Of a DNA stretch of 11,143 nt, positions 1-11,143 are shown one piece after another; within the stretch, counting starts at the first letter, position 1, and each line of letters opens with the position of its first letter. The notes beneath the pieces are model-generated. The model was not told the DNA's origin, ran no database searches, and saw nothing but the letters and a program-made list of their open reading frames with translations. Source of the stretch: a virus; the UHGV virus genome UHGV-0105484. One strand, written 5' to 3'. A program made the translations under genes and the position numbers.

Positions 1-720
1 GATATTCTTGCCGAACATGCAGCCTTTCGCTGTCAGCGACCAGAATTTTTTGATGTTGTTAATCGCGGTACGGCTGTATCGTTCGCGCTGCTCGACGATC
101 CCCAGCTTCACCATCTGGTGATATGCCTGATTAGCTGTCAGGTGGATACCATACTGCTTCAGCAGTGCACTCAGTGACAGCGTGGGGCGGCTTGAGCCAT
201 CAGGCGCGTCAGCAGGAGCATCAATGGCATAGCGCGGTGCCAGATTCGGTAAGCCAACAGCCTCCTGGAGTTTCTGACAGGCACCAAGCACTGAAGAGTT
301 AGACAGATTTAACTCCCTGCGCATAAAGTCCAGCAGAATCACACCAGCCTGCATCTTGTCAGCAGCCTGCCCGGATAATTTTTCCGGTGCGCTGGTTACC
401 ATATCGAAAGTACGGATCACCTTTAGATGGAATGACGGGCTGATCCACATTGCATAGGCATACACCAGTTCTTTGCAGACATACGTTCCCCGTTCATTTC
501 CCCCATGAATCACACTCACCGGGTCAACACCCAAATTCTGGGTGTTGGTCAATTCATGAACAAGTTCAACAGTTTGTTGGCTGGAAAGAAACTTTCCTGG
601 CTCCTTGGTTCTGGCATTTGCACCAGATGCTACTGCTGCGCGATGCAGATCGTTCAGGCTGTAACGTCCATAAGCATCACGACGAACTTCAATACCATCA
701 ATGACCATCAGATTATTCAT
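1..720 (-). CDS. KilA-N domain protein (antirepressor-like); C-terminus cut by window edge
   Basis: Minus-strand reading frame from ATG 720-718 runs to position 1 without a stop. N-terminus MNNLMVIDGIEVRRDAYGRYSLNDLHRAA... is typical of KilA-N/Bro-type phage proteins. SD GAGGAG about 10 nt upstream. Absent from the ORF track only because it runs off the edge. Confidence 0.75.
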   Translation of the reverse strand, partial: MNNLMVIDGIEVRRDAYGRYSLNDLHRAAVASGANARTKEPGKFLSSQQTVELVHELTNTQNLGVDPVSVIHGGNERGTYVCKELVYAYAMWISPSFHLKVIRTFDMVTSAPEKLSGQAADKMQAGVILLDFMRRELNLSNSSVLGACQKLQEAVGLPNLAPRYAIDAPADAPDGSSRPTLSLSALLKQYGIHLTANQAYHQMVKLGIVEQRERYSRTAINNIKKFWSLTAKGCMFGKNI

Positions 721-739
721 ACTTCGTTTCTCCTCTTGA

Positions 740-1129
740 TCAGGCGGCTGCACCCGCCGTTTTCTCGTACTTACTGATAGTGATCTCGACCTTCCCTTCC
801 GGGATAACCGGTCCCCACTCCACCAGCATTCTTTTCACCTGACTGTCGTCTTCCCACACCCCCGCGTGGGTCAGGGCGTCAAACAGCGCCTTGTTATAGT
901 TGTCCAGATCGCGGATCCTGTTATCCGGAGGAAACAACACGATCTCCACTGAAGCAGGTGCCGACGTTGGTTTCGGCAGACGACGTAACTGTTCAACTAT
1001 TGCTGCGCACGCCGCGCTCTGAAATTTTCGCCCCGCCGCGCTTATCAGGCTCTTACCTGCAAACGCCCCTTTGTTGGGGTGTCGCCAGTACGTGTTCACG
1101 CTGGGCGGGAAAGGCAGGATCAGCTTCAT
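740..1129 (-). CDS. rusA: RusA-family Holliday junction resolvase
   Basis: 129 aa; motifs LPFPPSVNTYWRH and RIRDLDNYNKALFDALTHAGVWEDDSQV align with RusA (LPWPPSNNRYYRH ... [28 protein letters not shown]). Start ATG overlaps the upstream stop (ATGA). Confidence 0.85.
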   Translation of the reverse strand: MKLILPFPPSVNTYWRHPNKGAFAGKSLISAAGRKFQSAACAAIVEQLRRLPKPTSAPASVEIVLFPPDNRIRDLDNYNKALFDALTHAGVWEDDSQVKRMLVEWGPVIPEGKVEITISKYEKTAGAAA

Positions 1130-1452
1130 ACTTTCAGGCCCCTCTTATGTAACCAGTGGGTTGCACGCAGCCTGGCGTTTTCCTCACCGGCAAGCAGTGA
1201 GCGGATAATCCCGACCGCCTCGCTGTCGTCGTCCTTCACCGCGGTATGAAGCGTGATGCCCCGGGCCACGCCACGCTTTATCGTGATGACGCCTTTTTTC
1301 TCCAGTGCGCGAAGATGCTCCACCGCTGCATTCACTGAACGGTATCCCAGCATGGTTGCCACCTCCTGATTGGTTGGCGGGAAGCCACGTTCTTTCTGAT
1401 AAGAAATCAGCATATCCAGCACCTGCTGCTGGCATTGAGTTAACGTCGTCAT
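1126..1452 (-). CDS. LexA N-terminal DNA-binding-domain protein (no S24 peptidase domain)
   Basis: 108 aa from ATG 1452 (the track's 1485 start is GTG). MTTLTQCQQQVLDMLISYQKERGFPPTNQEVATMLGYRSVNAAVEHLRALEKKGVITIKRGVARGITL aligns with the LexA DNA-binding domain ([69 protein letters not shown]). Start overlaps upstream stop (TAATG). Confidence 0.6.
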   Translation of the reverse strand: MTTLTQCQQQVLDMLISYQKERGFPPTNQEVATMLGYRSVNAAVEHLRALEKKGVITIKRGVARGITLHTAVKDDDSEAVGIIRSLLAGEENARLRATHWLHKRGLKV

Positions 1453-1940
1453 TACGCCCCCACGTAATTCCCTGACAGATACCACTCATCACTCGATACA
1501 GCGCGCTTGCTGCTTTTCCGTAAACACAGCTCACGACGCGCCAGAAATTTGTTTCGTTCTGGCTGGGAGTGGCTTTCACGGAATGCCGCCATCCACACGG
1601 TTGCAGCACGACGGTATAAGCCCCTGGACTCCAGTTCTTCAGCCTGGCGGGTCAGGCACAAAATCACCCGTGGATCGTTAGTGCCGACATAGAAATTGCG
1701 CACAGGTCTGGTTTCTCGAACTGGTTGTGGTTCTGGTTCCTGCGCTCTCTCAGTCAGGCGCGGGAAATGTCTGCGTGTATCTCCTTCACAACGGTGAGCC
1801 ACACGCCCACTCTGACGTAACTTGCTTGCAGACTGCAGAACGCGCTGCCGTGAGTAACCTGCAAAAGCATCCGCAATGTCTCCGGAAGTACACCCCGGAT
1901 GGGCTTCAATGAATTTCTGAACGTCATTTAACAGACTCAT
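1452..1940 (-). CDS. Hypothetical phage protein, N-terminal winged-helix-like region and C-terminal ANR/PerC-like motif
   Basis: 162 aa from ATG 1940 (track start 1946 is GTG). C-terminal segment LTRQAEELESRGLYRRAATVWMAAFRES...ERNKFLARRELCL resembles the small ANR/PerC regulator pattern. Tightly packed between the replication gene and the LexA-like gene. Confidence 0.45.
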   Translation of the reverse strand: MSLLNDVQKFIEAHPGCTSGDIADAFAGYSRQRVLQSASKLRQSGRVAHRCEGDTRRHFPRLTERAQEPEPQPVRETRPVRNFYVGTNDPRVILCLTRQAEELESRGLYRRAATVWMAAFRESHSQPERNKFLARRELCLRKSSKRAVSSDEWYLSGNYVGA

Positions 1941-1942
1941 GA

Positions 1943-2884
1943 TCACCCTCTGAATCCTGCCGGGATCTGGCTGTAGTCCACGTTGTCGTAACTGGCTTTG
2001 AAGTACGGGTCCTCGCGTTTTTCGGTGTACGTGCTGACGGACGGCGATAAGCGCAGGGAAAGCTCATCCCATTTTTCCCGCAGCTTCGACGGGCTGAGCA
2101 CGTTACGGCACCAGAACGGATCGCGGCTGACGCGGCTGTACATCTCGCAGATTTGTTTGTGAGTACGCCCATCCTGTACACACATCAGGCGAATTTCGTT
2201 TGCCCAGGCTGTCCAGTTCGGTTCTTTGGGACGAACCACCTCGCCGTCACATTCGGCAGCCTGCTCGTACAGGGCGATGATTTTTTTCCAGAGCCACTGT
2301 GCGCAGGTCAAATCATCCTGCGTCCCCCACTGGCGCTTTTTAGGGCTGAATACAACCGCATTAGGATGGCGAGTTAAAAAATCCTGTTCAGCCGTCTGCG
2401 TGTCCGGTTGCGAAGCGTCCGGACGAGAAGGTTTTTTATCTGACGGATCATGTTTTGATTTTACTGACGGATCCCCGCCAGATTCTGACGGGTGAAAACC
2501 CGCTTTTTTGCCAGATTTCGACGCATCAAATTTTGACGGGTCAGATTTTGATGCGTCAGATTTTGACGGGTCAGAATCTGACAGTTGAGAAAATGCCGCT
2601 GCCTGAAGCTTCGCAACGTTAAGCTGATAAACATTCGACGCATTGCGGTTACCCTGGCGACGCGCCTTACGCGTTAACCAGCCTTCTGCTTCCAGCCGTG
2701 CGATAGCCGTTCTGACGGTACTCATCCCCGCGCCAATCTGACGGGCAATGGTTTCAATTGATGGCCAGCACACACCTTCGTCATTACTGAAATCAGCCAG
2801 GCGGGCCATAATTGCCACGCTGGATAACTTCATGCCTGATGCAGCGCAACCATCCCATACATAGCCGGTTAATTTAGTGCTCAT
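1943..2884 (-). CDS. Phage replication initiator (lambda O-like; N-terminal HTH, acidic Ser/Asp/Lys repeat linker)
   Basis: 313 aa; SD AGAGG 7 nt upstream of ATG 2884. N-terminus VWDGCAASGMKLSSVAIMARLADFSNDEGVCWPSIETIARQIGAGMSTVRTAIARLEAEGWL is a replication-initiator type HTH. The central SDSDPSKSDASKSDPSKFDASKS repeat is encoded by tandem DNA iterons. Sits after the cII-like gene as O does in lambda. Confidence 0.75.
   Translation of the reverse strand: MSTKLTGYVWDGCAASGMKLSSVAIMARLADFSNDEGVCWPSIETIARQIGAGMSTVRTAIARLEAEGWLTRKARRQGNRNASNVYQLNVAKLQAAAFSQLSDSDPSKSDASKSDPSKFDASKSGKKAGFHPSESGGDPSVKSKHDPSDKKPSRPDASQPDTQTAEQDFLTRHPNAVVFSPKKRQWGTQDDLTCAQWLWKKIIALYEQAAECDGEVVRPKEPNWTAWANEIRLMCVQDGRTHKQICEMYSRVSRDPFWCRNVLSPSKLREKWDELSLRLSPSVSTYTEKREDPYFKASYDNVDYSQIPAGFRG
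2438..2590. repeat. Iteron array inside the replication initiator gene (candidate phage origin of replication)
   Basis: About 8 copies of core TGACGGRTC. 2516-2590 holds five tandem 15-bp units (tttcgacgcatcaaa / ttttgacgggtcaga / ttttgatgcgtcaga / ttttgacgggtcaga / atctgacagttgaga); further copies at about 2441, 2465 and 2485. Units have internal dyad symmetry (tctgac..gtcaga). Analogous to lambda ori iterons inside gene O. Confidence 0.6.
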
Positions 2885-2893
2885 GACCGACCT

Positions 2894-3232
2894 CTATTTC
2901 CCTGAATTTACGACGAAACTGTTCGAGCGGACTGAAGCATTCATGCTCATAACCTTCGCGGAGGTAGATAACCCGTTGTGTTTCCGGCTCCCAACGAATG
3001 ACTCTGACGGGCACTCCGTAGTGATCTTTGAACCAGCGGTTAACTTGTCGCAAAGGACTGTCTCCTTCTGCCGGTTGAAATCACCCACAGCCCACTCTGC
3101 AAAGCTGTGGGTTACAATTTCCCTGTCACCTGGTACATTCACTGCATAGCAATATTCCACCTTCGCTTTTCCACCCGGTAAAGGAAGCGCAATCAGTTGC
3201 GAGCGACGGTAGTGTGTTGTTAAACTGTTCAT
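2894..3232 (-). CDS. Hypothetical protein (uncertain ORF between cII-like and replication genes)
   Basis: 112-aa ORF whose ATG (3232-3230) overlaps the upstream stop (ATGA). Composition is not strongly protein-like and no recognisable motif; kept at low confidence. Confidence 0.3.
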
Positions 3233-3798
3233 GCGTTAGTTTCTCCACAACCAGAAGCAATCGACGCCACGACGCCCGGAGCTGCACACTCGCGGGCGTC
3301 ATTACTTTCTGAAATGCAAAAAATTTTGTAGACAAGTGCTGCATGCTCCTGCAGCTTCGAAATTGAGAGATACAGCTCGTCGTTAATTGCTGTCTTCTCA
3401 TGCGGTTCCACTACACCGTCTTCGATTGCTGAACGAATCTGTTTTGAATAACTGCCGATCTGTTCAATGACTTCCAGCAGACGCTGGTTAATATCGGCGT
3501 TGTCCACATCCTCGACGTCAGGAAGAGACACAAAGACGCCATTTGCAGACTGCGCCACAGCATCAGCAATGAAGTGAGTGCCACCAGCACGCTGTAAAAC
3601 CATTGCCCATCCCAGCGGGAAAATCTGATCGCCATCTGCACGAAGGCGGTTGAATAAAGCGTTTTCTGTTACATCGAGCCAGTCAGCCGCTTCAGCGTAA
3701 CCACCCGGCAACGCCGCGATAGTTTTTCTGACAGCTTTCACGTACCACTCAGGCTGTTTTTCTATTTTCCAGTGATGCTTACCCACGATTAGCCTCAT
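3229..3798 (-). CDS. CII-like phage regulatory protein
   Basis: 189-aa ORF immediately downstream of the cro-like gene on the same strand, the lambda cII position. ATG 3798 lacks an SD; an in-frame GTG 12 nt downstream is preceded by GAGG and may be the true start. Family assignment by position and general resemblance only. Confidence 0.5.
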
Positions 3799-3829
3799 CG
3801 TTCTGTGGTTAAAAATTGAAAGTGTTCTG

Positions 3830-4030
3830 CTAATCTTTCGGATAGATATCCGGTCTTAAGTCAGATTTCGTAATTGCACCTGACGTGCATTGCTCAAGTT
3901 TTTTAGCCAGCACAAAACTGGCTTTTTTATAGCCATTGAAAACCAGCCGTAAGTAGCCAGATGTTGAGCCAACTTTTCCGGCCAACTCGCCCTGCTGTTC
4001 TTTGGTTAAAGAGTCCCAATACGCTTTCAT
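3830..4030 (-). CDS. Cro-like HTH regulator (YdaS/Cro type)
   Basis: 66 aa from ATG 4030, with strong SD GGAGG 11 nt upstream. MKAYWDSLTKEQQGELAGKVGSTSGYLRLVFNGYKKASFVLAKKLEQCTSGAITKSDLRPD has an HTH pattern. Divergent from the cI-like gene. The track's longer 167-aa ORF is an upstream extension without support. Confidence 0.6.
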   Translation of the reverse strand: MKAYWDSLTKEQQGELAGKVGSTSGYLRLVFNGYKKASFVLAKKLEQCTSGAITKSDLRPDIYPKD

Positions 4031-4120
4031 ACAATATGTACCTCCGGTGTACATATTACATGATTGAAATGAACCTTCAAGATACTTGTACCTTAACGGT
4101 ACAAGAGTTTTAATTTCGTT
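4031..4120. promoter_or_regulatory. Immunity switch region: divergent promoters and palindromic operators between cro-like and cI-like genes
   Basis: Two dyad sites share a GTACC/GGTAC core: 4034-4056 (atatgtac-ctccggt-gtacatat) and 4085-4105 (cttgtacc-ttaac-ggtacaag). Minus-strand candidate promoter TTGAAG-16-TAATAT precedes cro. Plus-strand candidate TTGTAC-17-TTTAAT ends about 7 nt before the cI ATG, which has no SD, suggesting a leaderless cI transcript as at lambda pRM. Confidence 0.5.
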
Positions 4121-4795
4121 ATGAAAACAATCCATGACATCCGGCGGTCTAACGCCAGAAAACTGAGAGATGGTGTTGGCGGGAATTCTTCCTTTGCCAC
4201 TATGATTGATCGCGAGCCAACCCAGACCAGCAGGTTTATGGGAGATGGTGCTACTAAAAATATCGGTGACAGCATGGCACGACACATCGAAAAATGTTTC
4301 GACCTGCCTGTCGGATGGCTCGATCAAGAACACCAGACAACGAACATCACAAAAAAACCTGATGTTTCAATCACTAATAAACAAATCACATTAGTCCCTG
4401 TCATATCATGGGTACAGGCCGGAGCATGGAAAGAAGTTGGATATTCTGAGGTTGATTTGAGCACAGCAGAAACGTATCCCTGCCCTGTACCCTGTGGGGA
4501 AATGACTTATATCTTGCGGGTGATAGGTGATTCAATGATTGATGAGTACCGCCCGGGAGACATGATTTTTGTCGATCCTGAAGTACCTGCCTGCCACGGT
4601 GACGACGTTATTGCATTGATGCACGATACAGGTGAAACCACCTTCAAAAGGTTGATAGAAGATGGGACACAGCGTTATCTCAAAGCGTTAAACCCAAACT
4701 GGCCTGAGCCTTACATTAAGATCAACGGTAATTGCTCTATAATTGGTACAGTGATTTTCTCAGGAAAACCAAGAAGATACAAAATCAAAGCCTAA
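4121..4795 (+). CDS. CI-like prophage repressor, HTH plus S24 (LexA-like) autopeptidase domain
   Basis: 224 aa; N-terminal HTH region; candidate Ala-Gly cleavage site (VQAGAW); catalytic Ser in GDSM and Lys in FKRL. Divergently arranged with the cro-like gene. Confidence 0.85.
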   Translation: MKTIHDIRRSNARKLRDGVGGNSSFATMIDREPTQTSRFMGDGATKNIGDSMARHIEKCFDLPVGWLDQEHQTTNITKKPDVSITNKQITLVPVISWVQAGAWKEVGYSEVDLSTAETYPCPVPCGEMTYILRVIGDSMIDEYRPGDMIFVDPEVPACHGDDVIALMHDTGETTFKRLIEDGTQRYLKALNPNWPEPYIKINGNCSIIGTVIFSGKPRRYKIKA

Positions 4796-4807
4796 TCAAT
4801 GTTTATG

Positions 4808-4831
4808 AACCTGCTTCGGCAGGTTTTTTTA
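4808..4831 (+). terminator. Rho-independent terminator downstream of cI
   Basis: Stem aacctgc / gcaggtt with loop ttcg, followed by a run of 7 T (4824-4830), 13 nt after the cI stop. Confidence 0.6.
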
Positions 4832-4834
4832 TAC

Positions 4835-4862
4835 TTGACAATGTACCTTTGAGATACATAAT
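4835..4862 (+). promoter_or_regulatory. Candidate pL-like sigma70 promoter flanked by operator-like half-sites
   Basis: TTGACA (4835-4840), 16-bp spacer, cATAAT (4857-4862). TGTACC motifs at 4842-4847 and 4862-4867 match the operator half-site seen in the cI/cro intergenic region. Confidence 0.45.
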
Positions 4863-5029
4863 GTACCCAAGCGAAACAACGAACAGGCAGGACGCCCACG
4901 AAGTAGCCGCCTGGGGCATATGAAGTCCAGGATGATTCGTTAGCAACAAAAAAGCGCTCTAAAGGACGCTTCGCTCTTTGACAATCTGGTCCCCATCAAC
5001 AAGTAACTGATAACTTGAGGAGGTGTGAA

Positions 5030-5236
5030 ATGCACAAAACAGAACCAAAAATCGTCGCACCCGGATACACAAATGAGGAAATTTACGAGTGGATGGCAAA
5101 GAAGCTGGCAGCTATAAACCAGCTTCGTGAAGTGCTGTCTTATCGACAGGAAACAATAGACTCCTTAAAAAAACTGGATCAGGAAATCACGGTTTTATCA
5201 CAGGATGTTACTTTAGATATTGTGCAGACAAATTAG
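5030..5236 (+). CDS. Hypothetical small acidic protein (68 aa), first ORF of the pL-like operon
   Basis: ATG 5030 with strong SD GAGGAGG 7 nt upstream (the track's 5015 start is TTG). No recognisable domain; not arginine-rich, so not an N-like antiterminator. Confidence 0.45.
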   Translation: MHKTEPKIVAPGYTNEEIYEWMAKKLAAINQLREVLSYRQETIDSLKKLDQEITVLSQDVTLDIVQTN

Positions 5237-5642
5237 GATCCCATTCATTTTCGTCAAAATCATCAAAGTGATGAATTTGTGATCTCCAGTCTCGATAATC
5301 TAAAAATTTCTGGGCGGTTACGCTTATTTTATCAAGCGTGAGTTCATCCTGAATTGAAAGAAGAAGTTCATCAAATTTCATCTCATTAATCTGTTTTGGC
5401 ATCCAGTGATGCTTCATCAGAATAAGGTGAACCAGAGCTTTTTTCCCATTCAACTGATTATAGGGAGTGCCGAATTTCTTCCGGTGCTCATGTAAGACAA
5501 GGTCCAGAAGAGTAAGTAATGTTGCCCTTGATTCAACTTTGCTTATTTCGACTGATGACACTACCCCACTGATTTCAATGCCCCGATACTTTCCAACATT
5601 TTCACAGTGGGATTTGTACAGCGTATAGATATTACCGGACAT
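5208..5642 (-). CDS. Hypothetical protein (144 aa), AT-rich accessory gene convergent with the 68-aa ORF
   Basis: ATG 5642 with SD AAGGA about 7 nt upstream. Soluble, no recognised motif. AT-rich relative to flanks. Its 3' end overlaps the 68-aa ORF by 29 bp. Confidence 0.5.
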   Translation of the reverse strand: MSGNIYTLYKSHCENVGKYRGIEISGVVSSVEISKVESRATLLTLLDLVLHEHRKKFGTPYNQLNGKKALVHLILMKHHWMPKQINEMKFDELLLSIQDELTLDKISVTAQKFLDYRDWRSQIHHFDDFDENEWDPNLSAQYLK

Positions 5643-5657
5643 TTCTTTTCCTTTTGC

Positions 5658-5709
5658 GTTGTTGGGGATAACCAGATTAACCGAATCCTTGTTGTTGGGG
5701 AATAACCAG
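5658..5709. repeat. Two direct repeats (18/19 bp) upstream of the 144-aa gene
   Basis: gttgttggggataaccag (5658-5675) and gttgttggggaataaccag (5691-5709), identical except for one inserted A, 33 bp apart, just upstream of the minus-strand SD/ATG at 5642. Confidence 0.55.
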
Positions 5710-6059
5710 GTCCACCTCGCCTGATGTGGCTAAAAGCAGGCACATAACAGCTAAGTATTTTCAACCAGAGAGAATTCTTAGCGTTGTGGTGAATGCGGCT
5801 CAGCGCACGCGGGTTAAGGTTGAGGCTGACAGTCGACCTTCTGTGGATACCCACCCGCCTGGTGTGCAACCTTCGCCAGGCACCGGGAGGCACCCGGCAC
5901 CACAACTTTATGCTGTGTTTTTACAAAACAGAGAAGAGCATCACCGGACGACGGGCTCATAACCCAATCCATCCGGGCGGCTGCCACCGCAGGTGTTCTT
6001 CTCTATTTTGTGGAGAAACTAATCGGCCTTGCAGGGTCGATATGATGAGGAGCAGCAAA

Positions 6060-6422
6060 ATGGCTAGCGAACGCAGTACTGATGTGCAGGCATTTATCGG
6101 GGAGCTGGACGGCGGCGTATTTGAAACCAAAATCGGCGCAGTTCTCAGTGAAGTCGCTTCCGGTGTGATGAACACGAAAACCAAAGGTAAGGTCTCGCTC
6201 AACCTGGAAATCGAACCGTTTGATGAGAACCGTGTGAAAATCAAACACAAACTCTCATATGTTCGCCCGACTAACCGCGGGAAAATTTCCGAAGAAGACA
6301 CCACCGAAACGCCGATGTATGTCAATCGCGGTGGTCGCCTGACTATTCTGCAGGAAGACCAGGGACAATTACTGACTCTTGCCGGTGAACCTGACGGAAA
6401 ACTCCGCGCAGCAGGTCATTAA
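6060..6422 (+). CDS. yfdP: YfdP-like phage protein (120 aa)
   Basis: ATG 6060 with SD GAGGAG 8 nt upstream. Length and position immediately upstream of the yfdQ- and yfdR-like genes match the CPS-53 yfdP-yfdQ-yfdR order. The track's 209-aa ORF is a non-protein-like 5' extension. Confidence 0.55.
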   Translation: MASERSTDVQAFIGELDGGVFETKIGAVLSEVASGVMNTKTKGKVSLNLEIEPFDENRVKIKHKLSYVRPTNRGKISEEDTTETPMYVNRGGRLTILQEDQGQLLTLAGEPDGKLRAAGH

Positions 6423-6487
6423 TATCGTTCTTAATTAACTGATTATTTATCTCATCACTGAATATCTTTATATAGTGAGGACTTATT

Positions 6488-7312
6488 ATGTCTCAGAACT
6501 TAGACGCAACCGCAATTAATCAAATCCATGCCCTTATTTCTGCTCAGGGTGTTAATGAAATTATCAGTAAGATTGGTGCCGATGCTGTGGCATTGCCTGA
6601 GAATTTCCGCATTCATGATCTGGAAAAATTTAATTTAAATCGCTTCCGTTTCCGTGGTGCGCTTTCCACTGCCAGCATCGATGACTTTACCCGTTATTCT
6701 AAAGATCTTGCAGATGAAGGCACCCGCTGCTTTATCGATGCCGATAATATGCGAGCCGTCAGTGTGCTTAACCTGGGTACTATTGATGAACCAGGTCACG
6801 CAGATAACACCGCCACCCTCAAACTGAAAAAGACAGCACCGTTTTCTGCTCTGTTGTCTGTTAATGGCGAGCGTAACTCCCAGAAGTCACTGGCAGAATG
6901 GATTGAAGACTGGGCCGACTACCTTGTGGGCTTTGATGCTAATGGTGACACCATTCAGGCAACCAAAGCGGCTGCGGCAGTCCGTAAAATCACAATTGAA
7001 GCAAACCAGACCGCTGATTTTGAAGACAATGACTTCAGCGGCAAACGCTCCCTGATGGAGTCTGTCGAAGCGAAAACCAAAGACATTATGCCAGTGGCAT
7101 TTGAATTTAAATGCGTTCCGTTTGAAGGCCTGAAAGAACGTCCGTTTAAATTACGCCTCAGCATTATCACTGGCGATCGTCCTGTACTGGTTCTGCGCAT
7201 TATTCAGCTGGAAGCAGTGCAGGAAGAAATGGCTAACGAATTTCGTGATCTGCTTGTTGAGAAATTCAAAGACAGCAAAGTAGAAACCTTTATTGGTACT
7301 TTCACCGCCTGA
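6488..7312 (+). CDS. yfdQ: YfdQ-like protein (DUF2303 family), 274 aa
   Basis: Complete ORF with SD GTGAGGA upstream of ATG 6488. Length (274 aa) and the sequence as recalled fit E. coli prophage YfdQ. Confidence 0.7.
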
Positions 7313-7324
7313 TTTCATTACTGC

Positions 7325-7346
7325 AAATGCCCCTGCGGGGGCATTT
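7325..7346 (+). terminator. GC-rich hairpin between yfdQ-like and yfdR-like genes (possible weak terminator or attenuator)
   Basis: Perfect 9-bp stem aaatgcccc / ggggcattt with loop tgcg; only a short T tract follows, so termination efficiency is doubtful. Confidence 0.3.
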
Positions 7347-7439
7347 ATGGAAACGTAATTAACTCAATAATCGCCGGATGGTGAGGGCTTCCTTTTACCA
7401 GAATTCAGCGCGGTGCAGCGCATATACGTGGAGAACAAA

Positions 7440-7988
7440 ATGTCATTTATTAAAACTTTTTCCGGGAAGCATTTTTATTATGACAGGATAAATAAAGACG
7501 ACATCGTTATTAACGATATCGCGGTTTCTCTTTCAAATATCTGTCGCTTTGCAGGACATCTTTCACATTTCTACAGCGTCGCCCAACATGCAGTTCTTTG
7601 AAGCCAGCTGGTTCCGCAGGAATTTGCTTTTGAAGCATTAATGCATGATGCAACAGAAGCGTATTGCCAGGACATCCCCGCGCCACTGAAACGCCTTCTT
7701 CCTGACTATAAACGGATGGAAGAAAAAATAGACGCCGTAATCCGTGAGAAATACGGGTTACCCCCGGTTATGAGCACGCCCGTGAAATATGCCGATCTCA
7801 TCATGCTGGCAACCGAACGCCGCGATCTCGGGCTTGATGATGGCTCTTTCTGGCCTGTGCTGGAAGGTATCCCGGCAACAGAGATGTTCAACGTGATTCC
7901 ACTGGCACCGGGCCATGCCTACGGGATGTTTATGGAACGCTTTAAAGAGCTGCATAAGATACATAAACAATCCAGACAGCGAAATTAA
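7440..7988 (+). pseudogene. yfdR: YfdR-like HD-domain 5'-deoxynucleotidase interrupted by an in-frame TGA (codon 54, 7599-7601)
   Basis: ORFs 7413..7601 and 7641..7988 are in the same frame and together read MSFIKTFSGKHFYYD...FAGHLSHFYSVAQHAVL-[TGA]-SQLVPQEFAFEALMHDATEAY..., about 182 codons against about 178 aa for YfdR. The first fragment carries His residues and the second the HD dyad. Real ATG is 7440 (7413 is GTG). Confidence 0.65.
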
Positions 7989-8031
7989 CTAGTGAAATAG
8001 TTTTGTAGCAAAAGAAATGAGGTTATCAAAA

Positions 8032-8277
8032 ATGCTTCAAATGCTGACACTTGAGGAATGGGCTGCGGAAAAATTTAGGAGTAATCCTCCAAGTGTGTCC
8101 ACATTGCGTCGTTATGCTAAGCAGAATTTATTTTGTCCACCGGCAATGAAACAAGGTCGACTATGGCGAGTGCGTGAGGACGCAGAGTTAGTTGGGGAAT
8201 TAGTTACTCCTGTCATCAAGAAAAGTGATTCTATTATTCTACAAAGGATTTTAAGTAATGGCAGCCAGACCACGTAA
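8032..8277 (+). CDS. xis: Excisionase (lambda Xis family)
   Basis: MLQMLTLEEWAAEKFRSNPPSVSTLRRYAKQNLFCPPAMKQGRLWRVREDAELV... parallels lambda Xis (MYLTLQEWNARQRRPRSLETVRRWVRECRIFPPPVKDGREYLFHESAVKV). 3' end overlaps int by 20 nt, as in lambda. Alternative in-frame ATGs at 8017 and 8041. Confidence 0.8.
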   Translation: MLQMLTLEEWAAEKFRSNPPSVSTLRRYAKQNLFCPPAMKQGRLWRVREDAELVGELVTPVIKKSDSIILQRILSNGSQTT

Positions 8278-9385
8278 AAATAATGTTTCAGTCCCGAACT
8301 TGTATCCGCTCTATAGCAGAAAAGTAAATAAAGTCTATTGGCGATATAAGCATCCAGTGACCGGGAAGTTTCATTCTTTGGGCACAAACGAAGCTGAAGC
8401 CATTGCTATTGCCACTGAGGCCAATACACGCCTAGCTGAGCAAAGAACCCGGCAGATTCTGGCTATCAGTGACAGGATCGCAACCAGCAAAGGAAAAGCA
8501 ATCACAACGTCAACCTGGTTAGATCGCTATCAAGCAATCCAAGATGACAGACTGAAAAGTGGCGATATAAAGCTCAATACCTATAAACAGAAAGCCAAAC
8601 CAGTATCCTTGCTCAGGGAACGAGCAGGAATGAAGTTTATTTCATCCGTTGATGTAAGGGATATCGCACAATTGCTTGACGAGTATATCACCGCCGGGCA
8701 ACCGAGGATGGCGCAAGTAGTCCGCTCCGTTCTAATTGATGTATTCAAGGAGGCACAACACTATGGGGAAGTCCCTCCGGGCTATAATCCAGCACTGGCA
8801 ACCAAACAACCCAGAAGAAAAATTACCCGACAACGGTTAAGTCTTGAAGAATGGCAAAAAATCTTTGATATTGCAGATGCCAGTCATCGTTATATGGGGA
8901 ATGCCATGCTGTTAGCACTGGTTACCGCCCAGCGGTTAGGTGATATCTCACGTATGAAATTTAGCGATATTTGGGATGATCATCTTCACGTCATCCAAGA
9001 AAAAACAGGGAGCAAAATCGCCATCCCACTTTCCCTTCGCCTCAATGCGATTAACTGGAGTTTACGCGATGTAATAGCCCGCTGCCGTGACTATGCAGTC
9101 AGCCCATACCTGGTGCATTTTTTCCGTTCAACTTCACAAGCAGAACGTGGGGCACAGGTTAAATCCAATACATTGACGACGAATTTCAGTAAAGCGAGGG
9201 ATTTGGCAGAAATCGACTGGGGTGATGGCACACCCGCAACATTCCATGAACAAAGGTCTTTATCTGAGCGACTTTACGAAGCTCAGGGTGTCGACACCCA
9301 AAAACTTCTGGGGCATAAATCGCCTAATCAAACCGCTCGCTACCACGATGATCGCGGAAAGGAATGGATAAAGATTCAAAACTAG
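8258..9385 (+). CDS. int: Lambda-family tyrosine integrase
   Basis: 375 aa. N-terminus has an arm-binding-type region (PNLYPLYSRKVNKVYWRYKHPVTGKFHSLG). C-terminal catalytic motifs: Arg in TAQRLGD, HEQRSLSERLY (His-x-x-Arg box) and LLGHKSPNQTARYHDDRGKEW (Tyr nucleophile). Confidence 0.9.
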   Translation: MAARPRKNNVSVPNLYPLYSRKVNKVYWRYKHPVTGKFHSLGTNEAEAIAIATEANTRLAEQRTRQILAISDRIATSKGKAITTSTWLDRYQAIQDDRLKSGDIKLNTYKQKAKPVSLLRERAGMKFISSVDVRDIAQLLDEYITAGQPRMAQVVRSVLIDVFKEAQHYGEVPPGYNPALATKQPRRKITRQRLSLEEWQKIFDIADASHRYMGNAMLLALVTAQRLGDISRMKFSDIWDDHLHVIQEKTGSKIAIPLSLRLNAINWSLRDVIARCRDYAVSPYLVHFFRSTSQAERGAQVKSNTLTTNFSKARDLAEIDWGDGTPATFHEQRSLSERLYEAQGVDTQKLLGHKSPNQTARYHDDRGKEWIKIQN

Positions 9386-9398
9386 CGTAATTTATTTG

Positions 9399-9827
9399 TT
9401 AATTTCTAATAGACAAAAGGACTATTTGAATAACAATAAATATAATTTGTATTAAAGTTACAACTGCAAGAGTTAATGTAAGCGATGCGATAAAGTAGGT
9501 TTTAATACTTGAAAGACAAAGCAATGATAATAAAAGAGTAATACCAAGTTGAATAAAGCATACAAAATAAAAGATCATTGCGCCCTGTAAATATCCGTGT
9601 GCCCTAAATCTTTGTATGTTAGCATTATCTAAAGAAGTTAATATGACAATAAGAGCAAAAATGAGCGCCATCATTGCTGTCGCATACGATGCTAAAGCTG
9701 AACCAAGACCATCTAGATGTTCTTTGAAATTTACCCCCGGTAGAATATCATAGCGATATTTGTACACGCCAAAGCCAATAGCGTTTGTCATAATCGTTAA
9801 AACCACGGGGGGAAACCATTTAATCAT
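9399..9827 (-). CDS. RexB-like small integral membrane protein (4 predicted TM helices)
   Basis: 142 aa from ATG 9827, which lies 1 nt after the upstream stop (TGAnATG); the track's longer start is 9857. Four hydrophobic segments. Motif LPGVNFKEHLDGLGSALASYATAMMALIFAL matches lambda RexB as recalled (IPGVSFSAHRDGLGATLSSYAGTMIAIL); size matches RexB (144 aa). AT-rich. Confidence 0.6.
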   Translation of the reverse strand: MIKWFPPVVLTIMTNAIGFGVYKYRYDILPGVNFKEHLDGLGSALASYATAMMALIFALIVILTSLDNANIQRFRAHGYLQGAMIFYFVCFIQLGITLLLSLLCLSSIKTYFIASLTLTLAVVTLIQIIFIVIQIVLLSIRN

Positions 9828-9828
9828 T

Positions 9829-10644
9829 TCAGTATCCAGCAGCCCTAAGATCTGCATTATTAATAAAGTTAGTTACCATTTGGCTCTCTATAGATATATT
9901 TGCGTTTTTATTGACTATATCATAGATGCCACCCGTTGTCGCGACATGAAGCTCAATCGCTTGGTCTCCTAGCGCTTGCTTCGCCGCTATTGTCATTTCA
10001 CGGATACCTGCTGGTAAGTTGTTTAATGTTGGACTAATGGTATCCTTAATGTTTTTAAGATGTTTTGGTTTAATAGTAATTTCAAAACTGTCTACATCAT
10101 TAAGATCAACAGCTGTTATACCAAGAAAATTTGTCATCTCCCTTAACGCGAAAGGAGAATTAGGTTCTAATTTTACATTGATTTTCCCCATATGTGCATA
10201 CTGCAATGCCTGGGCTGGCGTAACAGTTTTCTTGATGGGCTCAAATCTTATATTTCTATTGTTATTCGTATTAAAGAAAAAGTTGTCATAATATTTACCA
10301 AAAGAGCCAATTTTGGGACCAAAGAGAGTCGAGCCATACCCTACACAACGATTAGAAATGTAAATATATGAGGCAAAAGCAACGTCCTGATTTTGTTGCA
10401 GCAATGCCGTAATGTCCTGGTAGTTGTTATTAACTCTATCGATGGTTTTTATAATGTCTGTATTATTTGTTTTTAAAAACATAAATACATCACCCAATAT
10501 ATGATGTATCGAGTAATACGAACCATCTAACCTAACTGTTTGTGTGTTGCTCTGAATGAGTTGCAGAAAAGAAGAGCTAAGAGAACTCGCAAGAGGTTGC
10601 CCGTTTTGCGGATAAAGATCATATTTGTAATAATTCGTTTTCAT
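9829..10644 (-). CDS. RexA-like soluble protein (271 aa)
   Basis: Complete ORF from ATG 10644 in a roughly 30% GC island. Size and position (upstream of and coupled to the membrane gene) match lambda RexA (279 aa). Recalled RexA motifs have counterparts: Y-x-Y-I-H, F-x-F-x-KTN (FMFLKTNN), T-x-FGP (STLFGP), I-x-IKPK (EITIKPK). Not confirmed by database search. Confidence 0.6.
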   Translation of the reverse strand: MKTNYYKYDLYPQNGQPLASSLSSSFLQLIQSNTQTVRLDGSYYSIHHILGDVFMFLKTNNTDIIKTIDRVNNNYQDITALLQQNQDVAFASYIYISNRCVGYGSTLFGPKIGSFGKYYDNFFFNTNNNRNIRFEPIKKTVTPAQALQYAHMGKINVKLEPNSPFALREMTNFLGITAVDLNDVDSFEITIKPKHLKNIKDTISPTLNNLPAGIREMTIAAKQALGDQAIELHVATTGGIYDIVNKNANISIESQMVTNFINNADLRAAGY

Positions 10645-10712
10645 CCCTAATCATCTTATGATTTATTGTAGGTAAACCTATTCTCTTCATTATGTGTTCA
10701 AAATCAATCGTT

Positions 10713-10744
10713 TTGATAAATTTTTTTGATAAATCTTTGATAAC
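10713..10744. promoter_or_regulatory. Three tandem TTGATAA repeats upstream of the rexA-like gene, near the icd junction
   Basis: ttgataaa (10713-10720), ttgataaa (10726-10733), ttgataac (10737-10744), spaced 13 and 11 bp, in the 160-bp gap between the rexA-like start and the icd stop. Confidence 0.4.
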
Positions 10745-10765
10745 CGTTCGAATACTAATAATATA

Positions 10766-10796
10766 AACGGGAACCATTTGGCTCCCGTTTTTGTTT
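10766..10796 (-). terminator. Hairpin terminator immediately downstream of icd (potentially bidirectional)
   Basis: 10-bp stem aacgggaacc / ggctcccgtt (one mismatch), loop attt. Followed on the plus strand by TTTTTGTTT and on the minus strand (icd sense) by a U/A-rich tail, 16 nt after the icd stop. Confidence 0.55.
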
Positions 10797-10811: not shown

Positions 10812-11143
10812 TTACATATTTTCGATGATCGCATCACCAAACTCTGAACATTTCAGCAGTTTAGCGCCTTCCATCAAACGTTCGAAGTCATAGGTTACGG
10901 TCTTCGCATTGATTGCGCCTTCCATACCTTTAACAATCAGGTCTGCGGCTTCGGTCCAACCCATGTGGCGTAACATCATCTCAGCAGAGAGAATAATAGA
11001 GCCTGGGTTAACTTTGTCCTGACCGGCATATTTCGGCGCAGTACCGTGGGTAGCTTCAAACAGGGCGCATTCGTCACCGATGTTTGCGCCAGGGGCGATA
11101 CCGATACCGCCAACCTGCGCTGCCAGGGCGTCAGAAATGTAGT
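10812..11143 (-). CDS. icd: Isocitrate dehydrogenase (NADP), C-terminal fragment; prophage attachment target
   Basis: Minus-strand translation reads ...[96 protein letters not shown], the enterobacterial Icd C-terminus. Host-like GC content, unlike the adjacent AT-rich island. Confidence 0.95.

Follow-up and report, generated by a model that had tools for sequence, protein, structure and literature searches.

Lambdoid early transcription is a textbook case of antitermination. Many prophages, among them e14 of Escherichia coli K-12, have no N protein, which raises the question of how long early-left operons escape Rho. The question is posed here for the virus genome UHGV-0105484, a stretch of 11,143 nucleotides (the window, numbered from its first letter) that represents a lambdoid prophage of the e14/SfIV/SfV group with icd as integration site, as for e14. 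Its early-left transcript begins at a pL-type promoter and carries two elements in its leader, a boxA and a conserved 64-nt structured RNA, called element X in the following. Comparison of sequences leads us, with moderate confidence, to propose that the leader, by way of Nus factors and without N, protects the pL transcript from Rho over some 800 bases that are not translated.

The promoter of this transcript lies directly behind a cI-type repressor gene of the LexA/S24 family (4121..4795, plus strand, from the open reading frame (ORF) list), which is annotated as cI/repressor in SfIV and SfV and as ymfK in E. coli and is the orthologue of e14 ymfK/cohE. A cro-like gene (3833-4033, minus strand) and a CII-like gene oppose it. 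The intrinsic terminator of the repressor gene (4807..4833, plus strand) consists of a hairpin at 4807-4826 with an 8-bp stem and a 4-nt loop, followed by a T-run, and is an annotated terminator in SfV and Ayreon. One base past the T-run begins the -35 hexamer of a sigma-70 promoter (4835..4862, plus strand) in the orientation of the repressor gene, with TTGACA at 4835-4840, a 16-nt spacer and CATAAT at 4857-4862. The near-consensus promoter that an earlier note on this DNA had placed straight after the cI terminator was confirmed: with a match of 11/12 it had the top promoter-like score within 3700-6600. Its start is predicted, from spacing only, at A4869. Identical hexamers were present in SfIV, SfV, e14 and many IMG/VR contigs; SfIV has 97.5% identity to the window across 4700-5300, and the closest E. 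coli relative 99.1% across 4830-5040.

Operators were searched on both strands of the window with the pattern TGTACC-N5-GRTACA, allowing up to two mismatches. Eleven strand-hits were obtained, where 1.13 were expected, and none of 200 shuffles reached this number. Operator OL1 (4842..4858), the palindrome TGTACC-TTTGA-GATACA between the -35 and -10 hexamers, has no mismatch to TGTACCNNNNNGRTACA; the weaker OL2 (4862..4878, TGTACC-CAAGC-GAAACA) lies over the predicted start and has one mismatch. The same motif occurs on the cI/cro side at 4037-4053, 4070-4086 and 4087-4103. Thus the TGTACC half-sites likened in the earlier note to those of the cI/cro operators are indeed of this kind and belong to full 17-bp palindromes. 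The proposed equivalence to oL/pL is well supported, as SfIV, SfV and the K-12 prophage e14 all have this promoter with these operators behind their copy of the repressor gene, and the site was independently annotated as a promoter in phage Ayreon. We have high confidence, from these comparisons, that promoter and operators are genuine. As in lambda, a strong sigma-70 promoter stands just downstream of the repressor gene in the same orientation, is overlapped by cI/cro-type operators and serves an operon that ends in xis and int. In contrast to lambda, two operators rather than three are recognisable, with the sequence TGTACC-N5-GGTACA, the first gene is not N, and the leader contains other RNA modules.

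The first ORF of the pL transcript (5030..5236, plus strand) encodes 68 amino acids, belongs to phrog_1744, has a strong ribosome-binding site, GAGGAGG, and is annotated by PGAP in E. coli. A residue count gave a net acidic product, as the earlier note had stated, and its further statement that no N-like protein is encoded also held: Pfam and PHROGs searches with the ORFs revealed none in the window. In 69 related loci, the ORFs that come first behind the leader belonged to at least 53 PHROG families, with no N-like family among the commonest. Judged by these features, the leader is not a nut site of the lambda type, since an N-like protein is missing, the first ORF is acidic and a second boxA does not follow pR. 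With the nut sites of lambda and P22 the arrangement has in common that a lambdoid prophage carries boxA in its pL leader; it differs from them in having neither N protein nor pR-side counterpart, nor a boxB 3' of boxA at fixed spacing; the hairpin stands 5'. If an N-like protein encoded elsewhere in the phage had gone unrecognised and served a lambda-type nut site here, this would account for a boxA in a pL leader with hairpins nearby, and the loops of X contain GAAG(A/U), somewhat like the boxB loops of lambda. We regard this explanation as very improbable: none of the ORFs tested fell into an N-like family, the unrelated first-ORF families follow X itself, X has no second site after pR, and X and boxA stand anywhere between about 30 and about 670 nt apart.

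What the transcript would have to pass is a long region without translation on the plus strand. A convergent moron gene of 144 amino acids (5208..5642, minus strand, phrog_5286) is crossed antisense by the pL transcript, and an untranslated stretch (5643..6041, plus strand) follows, which includes a leader conserved with SfV and ST64B and a sub-threshold STnc100-like match at 5785-5904. Together, the antisense of the 144-aa gene and the roughly 400-nt noncoding leader to the gene at 6042 make 5237-6041 a stretch of about 800 nt without plus-strand translation. An 80-nt window from 5529 is C-rich and G-poor (C 23, G 9). A terminator scan of the pL operon showed no strong intrinsic terminator on the plus strand. 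Because of the untranslated length, the C-rich and G-poor window and this negative result, Rho is the expected barrier. A terminator annotated in SfV within the pL operon was not confirmed as a plus-strand terminator. Beyond this stretch lie the early-left genes under pL (6042..9385, plus strand), coding for a phrog_204 protein, a DUF2303 protein, a split yfdR-like gene, excisionase and integrase, the last two at 8017-9385.

The boxA-like sequence CGCTCTTTGACAA was found at 4972-4984, about +104 from the predicted pL start. The element as defined here (4973..4989, plus strand) reads GCTCTTTGACAATCTGG and corresponds to GCTCTTTAACAATCTGG in relatives; a private A-to-G change occupies consensus position 8 (base 4980). 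Against the gamma-proteobacterial consensus GYTCTTTAANA (Baniulyte et al. 2017, PMC5725501), the window copy scored 10/11, with the G at position 8 as the deviation, and GCTCTTTAACAA of the relatives 11/11, with 12/12 to the boxA of rrn.

The earlier note had reported this match and had allowed that it may be coincidental. For the window by itself the caution was right: four matches with up to one mismatch were present in the whole window, 1.74 were expected, and 21 of 200 shuffles did equally well. It is the comparison with relatives that lifts the boxA above chance. Relatives with the same downstream flank have (A/C/T)GCTCTTTAACAATCTGG at the homologous place. A module of A-run, hairpin AAGCGC..GGACGCTT, one spacer base and boxA was surveyed in 27 distinct variants, of which 26 kept GCTCTTTAA(C/A)AATC; the hairpin loop and the spacer base vary, boxA does not. 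G at position 8 occurred in the window only, and the closest E. coli relative has A. The canonical 17-mer GCTCTTTAACAATCTGG was found in at least 120 IMG/VR contigs, the G-variant of the window in only 15 viral contigs, all of them in other contexts. Phage T7 has the canonical 17-mer at nt 813-829 in sense orientation, 63 nt past the A3 start and ahead of gene 0.3. Among 44 distinct contexts of the 17-mer without hairpin or X, 23 had a promoter upstream in the sense direction (sigma-70 score of at least 10/12 within 200 nt) and none in the antisense direction. Conservation in relatives and T7 and this strand bias indicate that the 17-mer is selected in the sense strand of promoter-proximal leaders, as a boxA RNA requires. 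Relatives and unrelated phages together make boxA probably a genuine feature of the family. For the copy in the window the chances of being active appear even; it may be weakened, as it carries the A-to-G change.

A boxA that works without N has precedents in rRNA operons, in the leader of suhB and in leaders of CRISPR arrays; there the Nus complex keeps Rho from acting on RNA that is not translated (PMC5725501, PMC7665894), and boxA is known to block Rho termination of long untranslated RNAs (PMC7665894). The element described here likewise stands ahead of a long untranslated stretch. Its counterpart in the relatives is identical to the rrn boxA, and the hairpin 5' of boxA corresponds to the order boxB-boxA of rrn leaders. 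Differences to rrn are the absence of a following boxC-like UGUGUGGG, in place of which a conserved extension, AATCTGG, is shared with T7, and the G at position 8 of the window copy. The early leader of T7 resembles the leaders of the relatives in the identical 17-mer, in sense orientation and tens of bases past promoters of the host polymerase, and differs in lacking X, the A-run hairpin and a convergent gene at boxA; T7 is also a virulent phage.

From these parts the following course of events is proposed. On loss of the repressor, RNA polymerase would transcribe the leader from A4869. The transcript would present X from about +10 and, some 30 nt further on, the hairpin and a boxA of the rrn/T7 type. 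boxA would be occupied by NusB/NusE (S10), which NusA, NusG and SuhB would join to give a Nus complex like that of rrn, with no phage N involved. This complex would shield elongation from Rho over about 800 nt, the antisense of the 144-aa moron and the structured leader, and the protected polymerase would reach the early-left genes, xis and int. In the other direction, the hairpin beside boxA would act as terminator of the moron and keep its transcription out of pL and cI.

This second role of the hairpin (4945..4972, minus strand, with its A/T-run) invites a different explanation of the boxA-like sequence. On the plus strand the hairpin lies just 5' of boxA; on the minus strand GAAGCGTCC..GAGCGCTTT with TTTGTTGC forms an intrinsic terminator for the convergent 144-aa gene, and a terminator-like site was scored at 4972..4951. 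The boxA-like sequence could then have no role for pL and be part of a 3' cassette of convergent morons, made of stop codon, CCAGATTGTTAAAGAGC, hairpin and T-run, that is mutated in the window. It agrees with this explanation that the closest ORF past the module, counting those of 70 aa or more, was on the opposite strand in 35 of 40 distinct related contexts; these ORFs often end 7-30 nt away, and their lengths vary widely. The minus-strand terminator score fits as well, as do the G at position 8, found in the window only, and an in-window match that stays within chance. However, the identical 17-mer occurs apart from hairpin and convergent gene in T7 and in the 44 contexts with their one-sided promoters, and in the relatives it agrees with the rrn boxA at all 12 positions. 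Loop and spacer vary while boxA is constant, which makes boxA itself, and not the terminator, the likely target of selection. We consider a mere 3' cassette rather unlikely and tentatively read the module as a junction piece, a terminator for the moron that opposes pL and a boxA for the pL transcripts that enter this moron.

ORF68 on the plus strand and the 144-aa gene on the minus strand overlap convergently by 29 nt (5208-5236). The transcript of the 144-aa gene should be antisense to all of ORF68, up to the terminator at 4972-4951, and a mutual antisense control of the two genes is possible.

Upstream of the boxA module lies element X (4878..4941, plus strand), the most conserved feature in the part of the leader that the earlier note had described. 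The note had overlooked it, as it had the terminator role of the hairpin on the opposite strand. X is a 64-nt leader RNA with three stems and reached 94.3 bits in the covariance model. P1 is formed by 4878-4883 and 4936-4941. P2 pairs GGC (4886-4888) with GCC at 4906-4908, or alternatively at 4894-4896, around the near-invariant AGGACGCCCACGAAGUA. P3 (4910-4914/4927-4931) carries the loop GGCRUAYGAA, and the junction J3/1 is AUGA. For the alignment, an exact 19-mer from the core was used to collect more than 120 viral contigs, which yielded 96 distinct sequences including the window. In this alignment 95.8% of the cells were paired, compared with 74.8% after shuffling; ten of the 14 pairs had changes on both sides, and the covariation was 0.525, compared with 0.135 for shuffled alignments and at most 0.114 with slid partners. 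RNAalifold independently recovered P1 and P3 and offered an alternative small P2. P2 was invariant, in part because the 19-mer seed lay inside it, and its pairing is for this reason only putative. The loops and junctions are near-invariant, and the stems covary. As folding energies are unexceptional, it is the covariation that carries the case for X, and on this basis we are nearly certain that X is a real structured RNA.

X is so far undescribed. Rfam 15 gave no relevant match for the whole window, nor for 4860-5030 at E values up to 10, and a full-text literature search retrieved no match to the X sequence or to small RNAs of ymfJ/ymfK. Three candidate interpretations were set aside. A loop-loop pairing between L2 and L3 (ACGCC/GGCGU) is possible, but its columns hardly vary. 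GGA motifs of the CsrA type were rejected, as GGA is lost in ZF40 and mEp237. A riboswitch with expression platform is unlikely, for the 3' flank is a mosaic right after P1.

A BLAST search with the leader showed that only about 65 nt (4875-4943) are shared with very different phages, at 80-98% identity. Among them are SfII, SfV, phiNP, ST64B, SEN34, mEp237, mEp460, SPN3UB, ZF40, YeP1-3, Pantoea phage AH07 and phages of Klebsiella and Providencia. The prophage e14 of E. coli K-12 has an unannotated copy between ymfK/cohE and ymfJ (MG1655 about 1,202,106-1,202,182, minus strand; L224 7107-7183; 75.8 bits), with the same pL promoter and operators and without the boxA module. Of 5426 complete E. 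coli genomes, 1824 matched the 211 bp of promoter, X and boxA (4830-5040) at least in part; among the 15 best matches listed, none had an RNA annotated. When the 19-mer was searched in species genomes, X was found across Enterobacterales, and about 74 of 101 matches lay in an X context; matches in Planctomycetota and other GC-rich metagenome-assembled genomes had no X stems and were dismissed as chance or coding matches. In the T5-like Providencia phage vB_PreS_PR1, X is part of the terminal repeat (L342 1496-1573, plus strand; 68.4 bits, compensatory P1 GGAAC/GTTCC) and precedes pre-early genes, one of which encodes DNA transfer protein A2; temperate phages are thus not the only carriers of X. 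Ayreon, which has this cI and pL, has no X.

The place of X in the transcript is fixed and its surroundings are not. In most contexts 19-22 nt separate the end of the -10 hexamer from AGGCA, which places the beginning of P1 between about +5 and +10. At least ten operator types, hence different immunities, are represented among the promoters in front of X, and the 3' flank changes directly after P1, with more than 40 flank types. X occurs in one copy per phage. Its distance to boxA, from about 30 nt in the window upwards, is so variable that X and boxA have to be regarded as separate modules. Invariant loops and junctions in covarying stems, the fixed promoter-proximal position and the independence of flanks and downstream genes suggest that X binds a conserved host component, and that it acts by binding rather than by pairing with a phage-specific target or as a riboswitch with expression platform. 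Most likely X would also act, independently of its flanks, on the transcribing complex or a conserved host factor; this is the weakest part of our reading.

Several observations weigh against the proposed protection by boxA and Nus factors. Within the window the boxA match alone is within chance, and the copy departs from the consensus at position 8. A consensus scan found no further boxA in the pR operon (minus strand, 1-4033), unlike the two-copy nut and put systems, and the covariance model found no second X after pR. In lambdoid contexts the convergent moron confounds any conclusion from the orientation of boxA towards pL, and conservation of the module could therefore partly serve the 3' end on the minus strand. 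e14 and SfV have X and lack boxA, yet their pL operons contain opposite-strand genes, so boxA is not generally required. Folding energies were no better than those of shuffled sequences (z -0.96 for X, +0.46 for the leader), and the hairpin was unremarkable too.

The presence of X without boxA in e14 and SfV, in front of opposite-strand genes, speaks for another explanation, in which X and not boxA is the antiterminator: a cis-acting nascent RNA bound to its own polymerase in the manner of put, rendering it resistant to Rho-dependent and intrinsic terminators, with boxA as an accessory of some leaders. The putL site of HK022, located here by a primer given in PMC9378689, has about 70 nt, starts just past pL and needs no protein cofactor (PMC9378689). 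X is of similar size, starts within a few bases of the pL start, has no conserved flank and is found in phages without an N-like first gene. That a virulent T5-like phage has X in front of pre-early genes, which the host polymerase transcribes, fits the same picture, and near-invariant loops and junctions in covarying stems would be expected for binding to a conserved host machine. X has, however, no similarity to put in sequence or structure. It is a three-way junction closed by P1, a stem supported by covariation, whereas put consists of two adjacent stem-loops without closing stem, with a triplex in stem I, and comes as putL and putR, whereas X is single and absent behind pR. As to mechanism, put attaches to the beta-prime zinc-binding domain of the polymerase that transcribes it and counters both pausing and termination. 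Homology of X to put was rejected: only short strings are shared (ACGAAC, CAGGATGA), and the covariance model had no match in HK022, including putL and putR. We hold the antitermination by X to be possible and clearly less probable than the protection by boxA. A put-like or elongation-directed role of X would, by this analogy, be assigned only tentatively; in X, phages of Enterobacterales might then have a leader RNA of a new class, placed close to the promoter, that makes early transcription processive. As target, its own polymerase or a conserved host elongation or termination factor could be imagined, and X would perhaps be a counterpart of HK022 put, structurally unrelated to it.

Two IMG/VR contigs (L192 and L220) contain a near-identical stem I and triplex strand of HK022 putL (GTCGAACGGCGCGACTTTAAACCATGCGTCGG), followed directly by GCTCTTTAACAATCTGG and enclosed by GCGTC...GACGC. 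Their leader reads as a put/boxA hybrid and shows that such modules get shuffled.

X might alternatively be released from the 5' end of the early transcript as a stable small RNA or decoy whose target, reached in trans, would be a host RNA or protein. A compact, closed and self-contained RNA at the extreme 5' end, independent of its flank, would suit such a function. The C4 and P4 CI immunity RNAs are also small closed RNAs, cut out of early leaders, with a closing stem and two hairpins, and SfV and ST64B carry C4 and isrK. In contrast to those, X matches neither the C4 nor the isrK model of Rfam, and the C4 and isrK copies of SfV and ST64B are located on the pR side. The specificity loops of C4 and P4 CI also differ from the loops of X, which are invariant across heteroimmune phages with at least ten operator types and hence cannot encode phage-specific targeting, and no terminator or processing signal is conserved at the 3' end of X. 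A released RNA or decoy appears improbable to us, more so than a put-like role. The copies of the C4 antisense RNA (82 and 80 bits) and of isrK (64 bits) in SfV (L002 1991-2179, minus strand) and ST64B (L004 745-933, minus strand) have full scores and lie on the pR side, in SfV within the annotated 'orf37 immunity region'; the window has no such element. A 'transcription-termination-mediated immunity' of SfV, reportedly treated by Roberts, Allison and Verma in 2007, might be thought to describe X; its subject was probably rather C4/isrK.

Further noncoding blocks occur in these leaders. A noncoding leader of about 300 nt (5740-6040, plus strand) ahead of the phrog_204 gene is common to the window, SfV and ST64B. 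It includes a long hairpin, ACAAAACAGAGAAGAGCA...TGTTCTTCTCTGTTTTGT, and resembles STnc100 of Rfam below the gathering score of 47 (35.6 bits at 5785-5904 in the window, 39.5 in SfV); it probably adds one more structured module to these pL operons. In ST64B (L004 about 3064-3260) and in the contig L179 (about 4640-4840) a conserved leader block of about 190 nt is closed by GTGTCTTCGGGAGGGG...CCCCGCCCGAAGATAC. This block, absent from the window, stands in ST64B-type leaders between X and the STnc100-like region or boxA. A block with ..GGTTG(C/T)AACACGG(T/C)G..TG(C/T)GTCGT(A/T)AGC.. replaces X in Ayreon (L003 3160-3260) and is located upstream of X in L008, L037, L096 and L124. In this phage group, pL leaders are put together in mosaic fashion from several noncoding modules.

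The remaining genes agree with the assignment of the prophage: the PGAP names of orthologues are ymfK, ymfT and ymfL, which are e14 genes of E. coli K-12. Two ORFs (7413-7601 and 7641-7988, plus strand) share the yfdR-like gene, which codes for an HD-domain 5'-deoxynucleotidase. The closest E. coli relative has the same gene, named yfdR, unbroken, so the window probably carries a frameshift or a pseudogene here. The integrase gene is followed, towards the icd end, by an exclusion pair (9399-10644, minus strand), RexB-like with 152 aa and RexA-like with 271 aa (Pfam E values 1e-18 and 4e-39). A match to STnc150 (10710-10795, plus strand) stayed below threshold with 49.1 bits for a gathering score of 60, and a 3' fragment of icd is present at the right end (10812-10979, minus strand). 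Within the O-like replication gene (1943-2884, minus strand), short repeats at about 2455-2643 look like origin iterons inside a replication initiator gene; QILT/QNLT is repeated in other frames, and a spurious mir-5880 match (2509-2583) falls into the same region.

For lambdoid phages without N, the leader RNA suggests a modular answer to the escape from Rho: a host-type boxA at the entry to a convergent untranslated moron, and a separate 64-nt structured RNA. The arrangement of terminator and boxA suggests how phages tolerate morons that are inserted against early transcription. An X that modifies elongation would be a new regulator of RNA polymerase made of RNA only; an X that does not is still an unassigned conserved phage RNA outside Rfam. 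Should its role in processivity be true, copies of such a regulator would be present in a large share of E. coli genomes, including e14 of K-12, and in the pre-early regions of T5-like phages. The copy in the K-12 prophage makes this directly testable.

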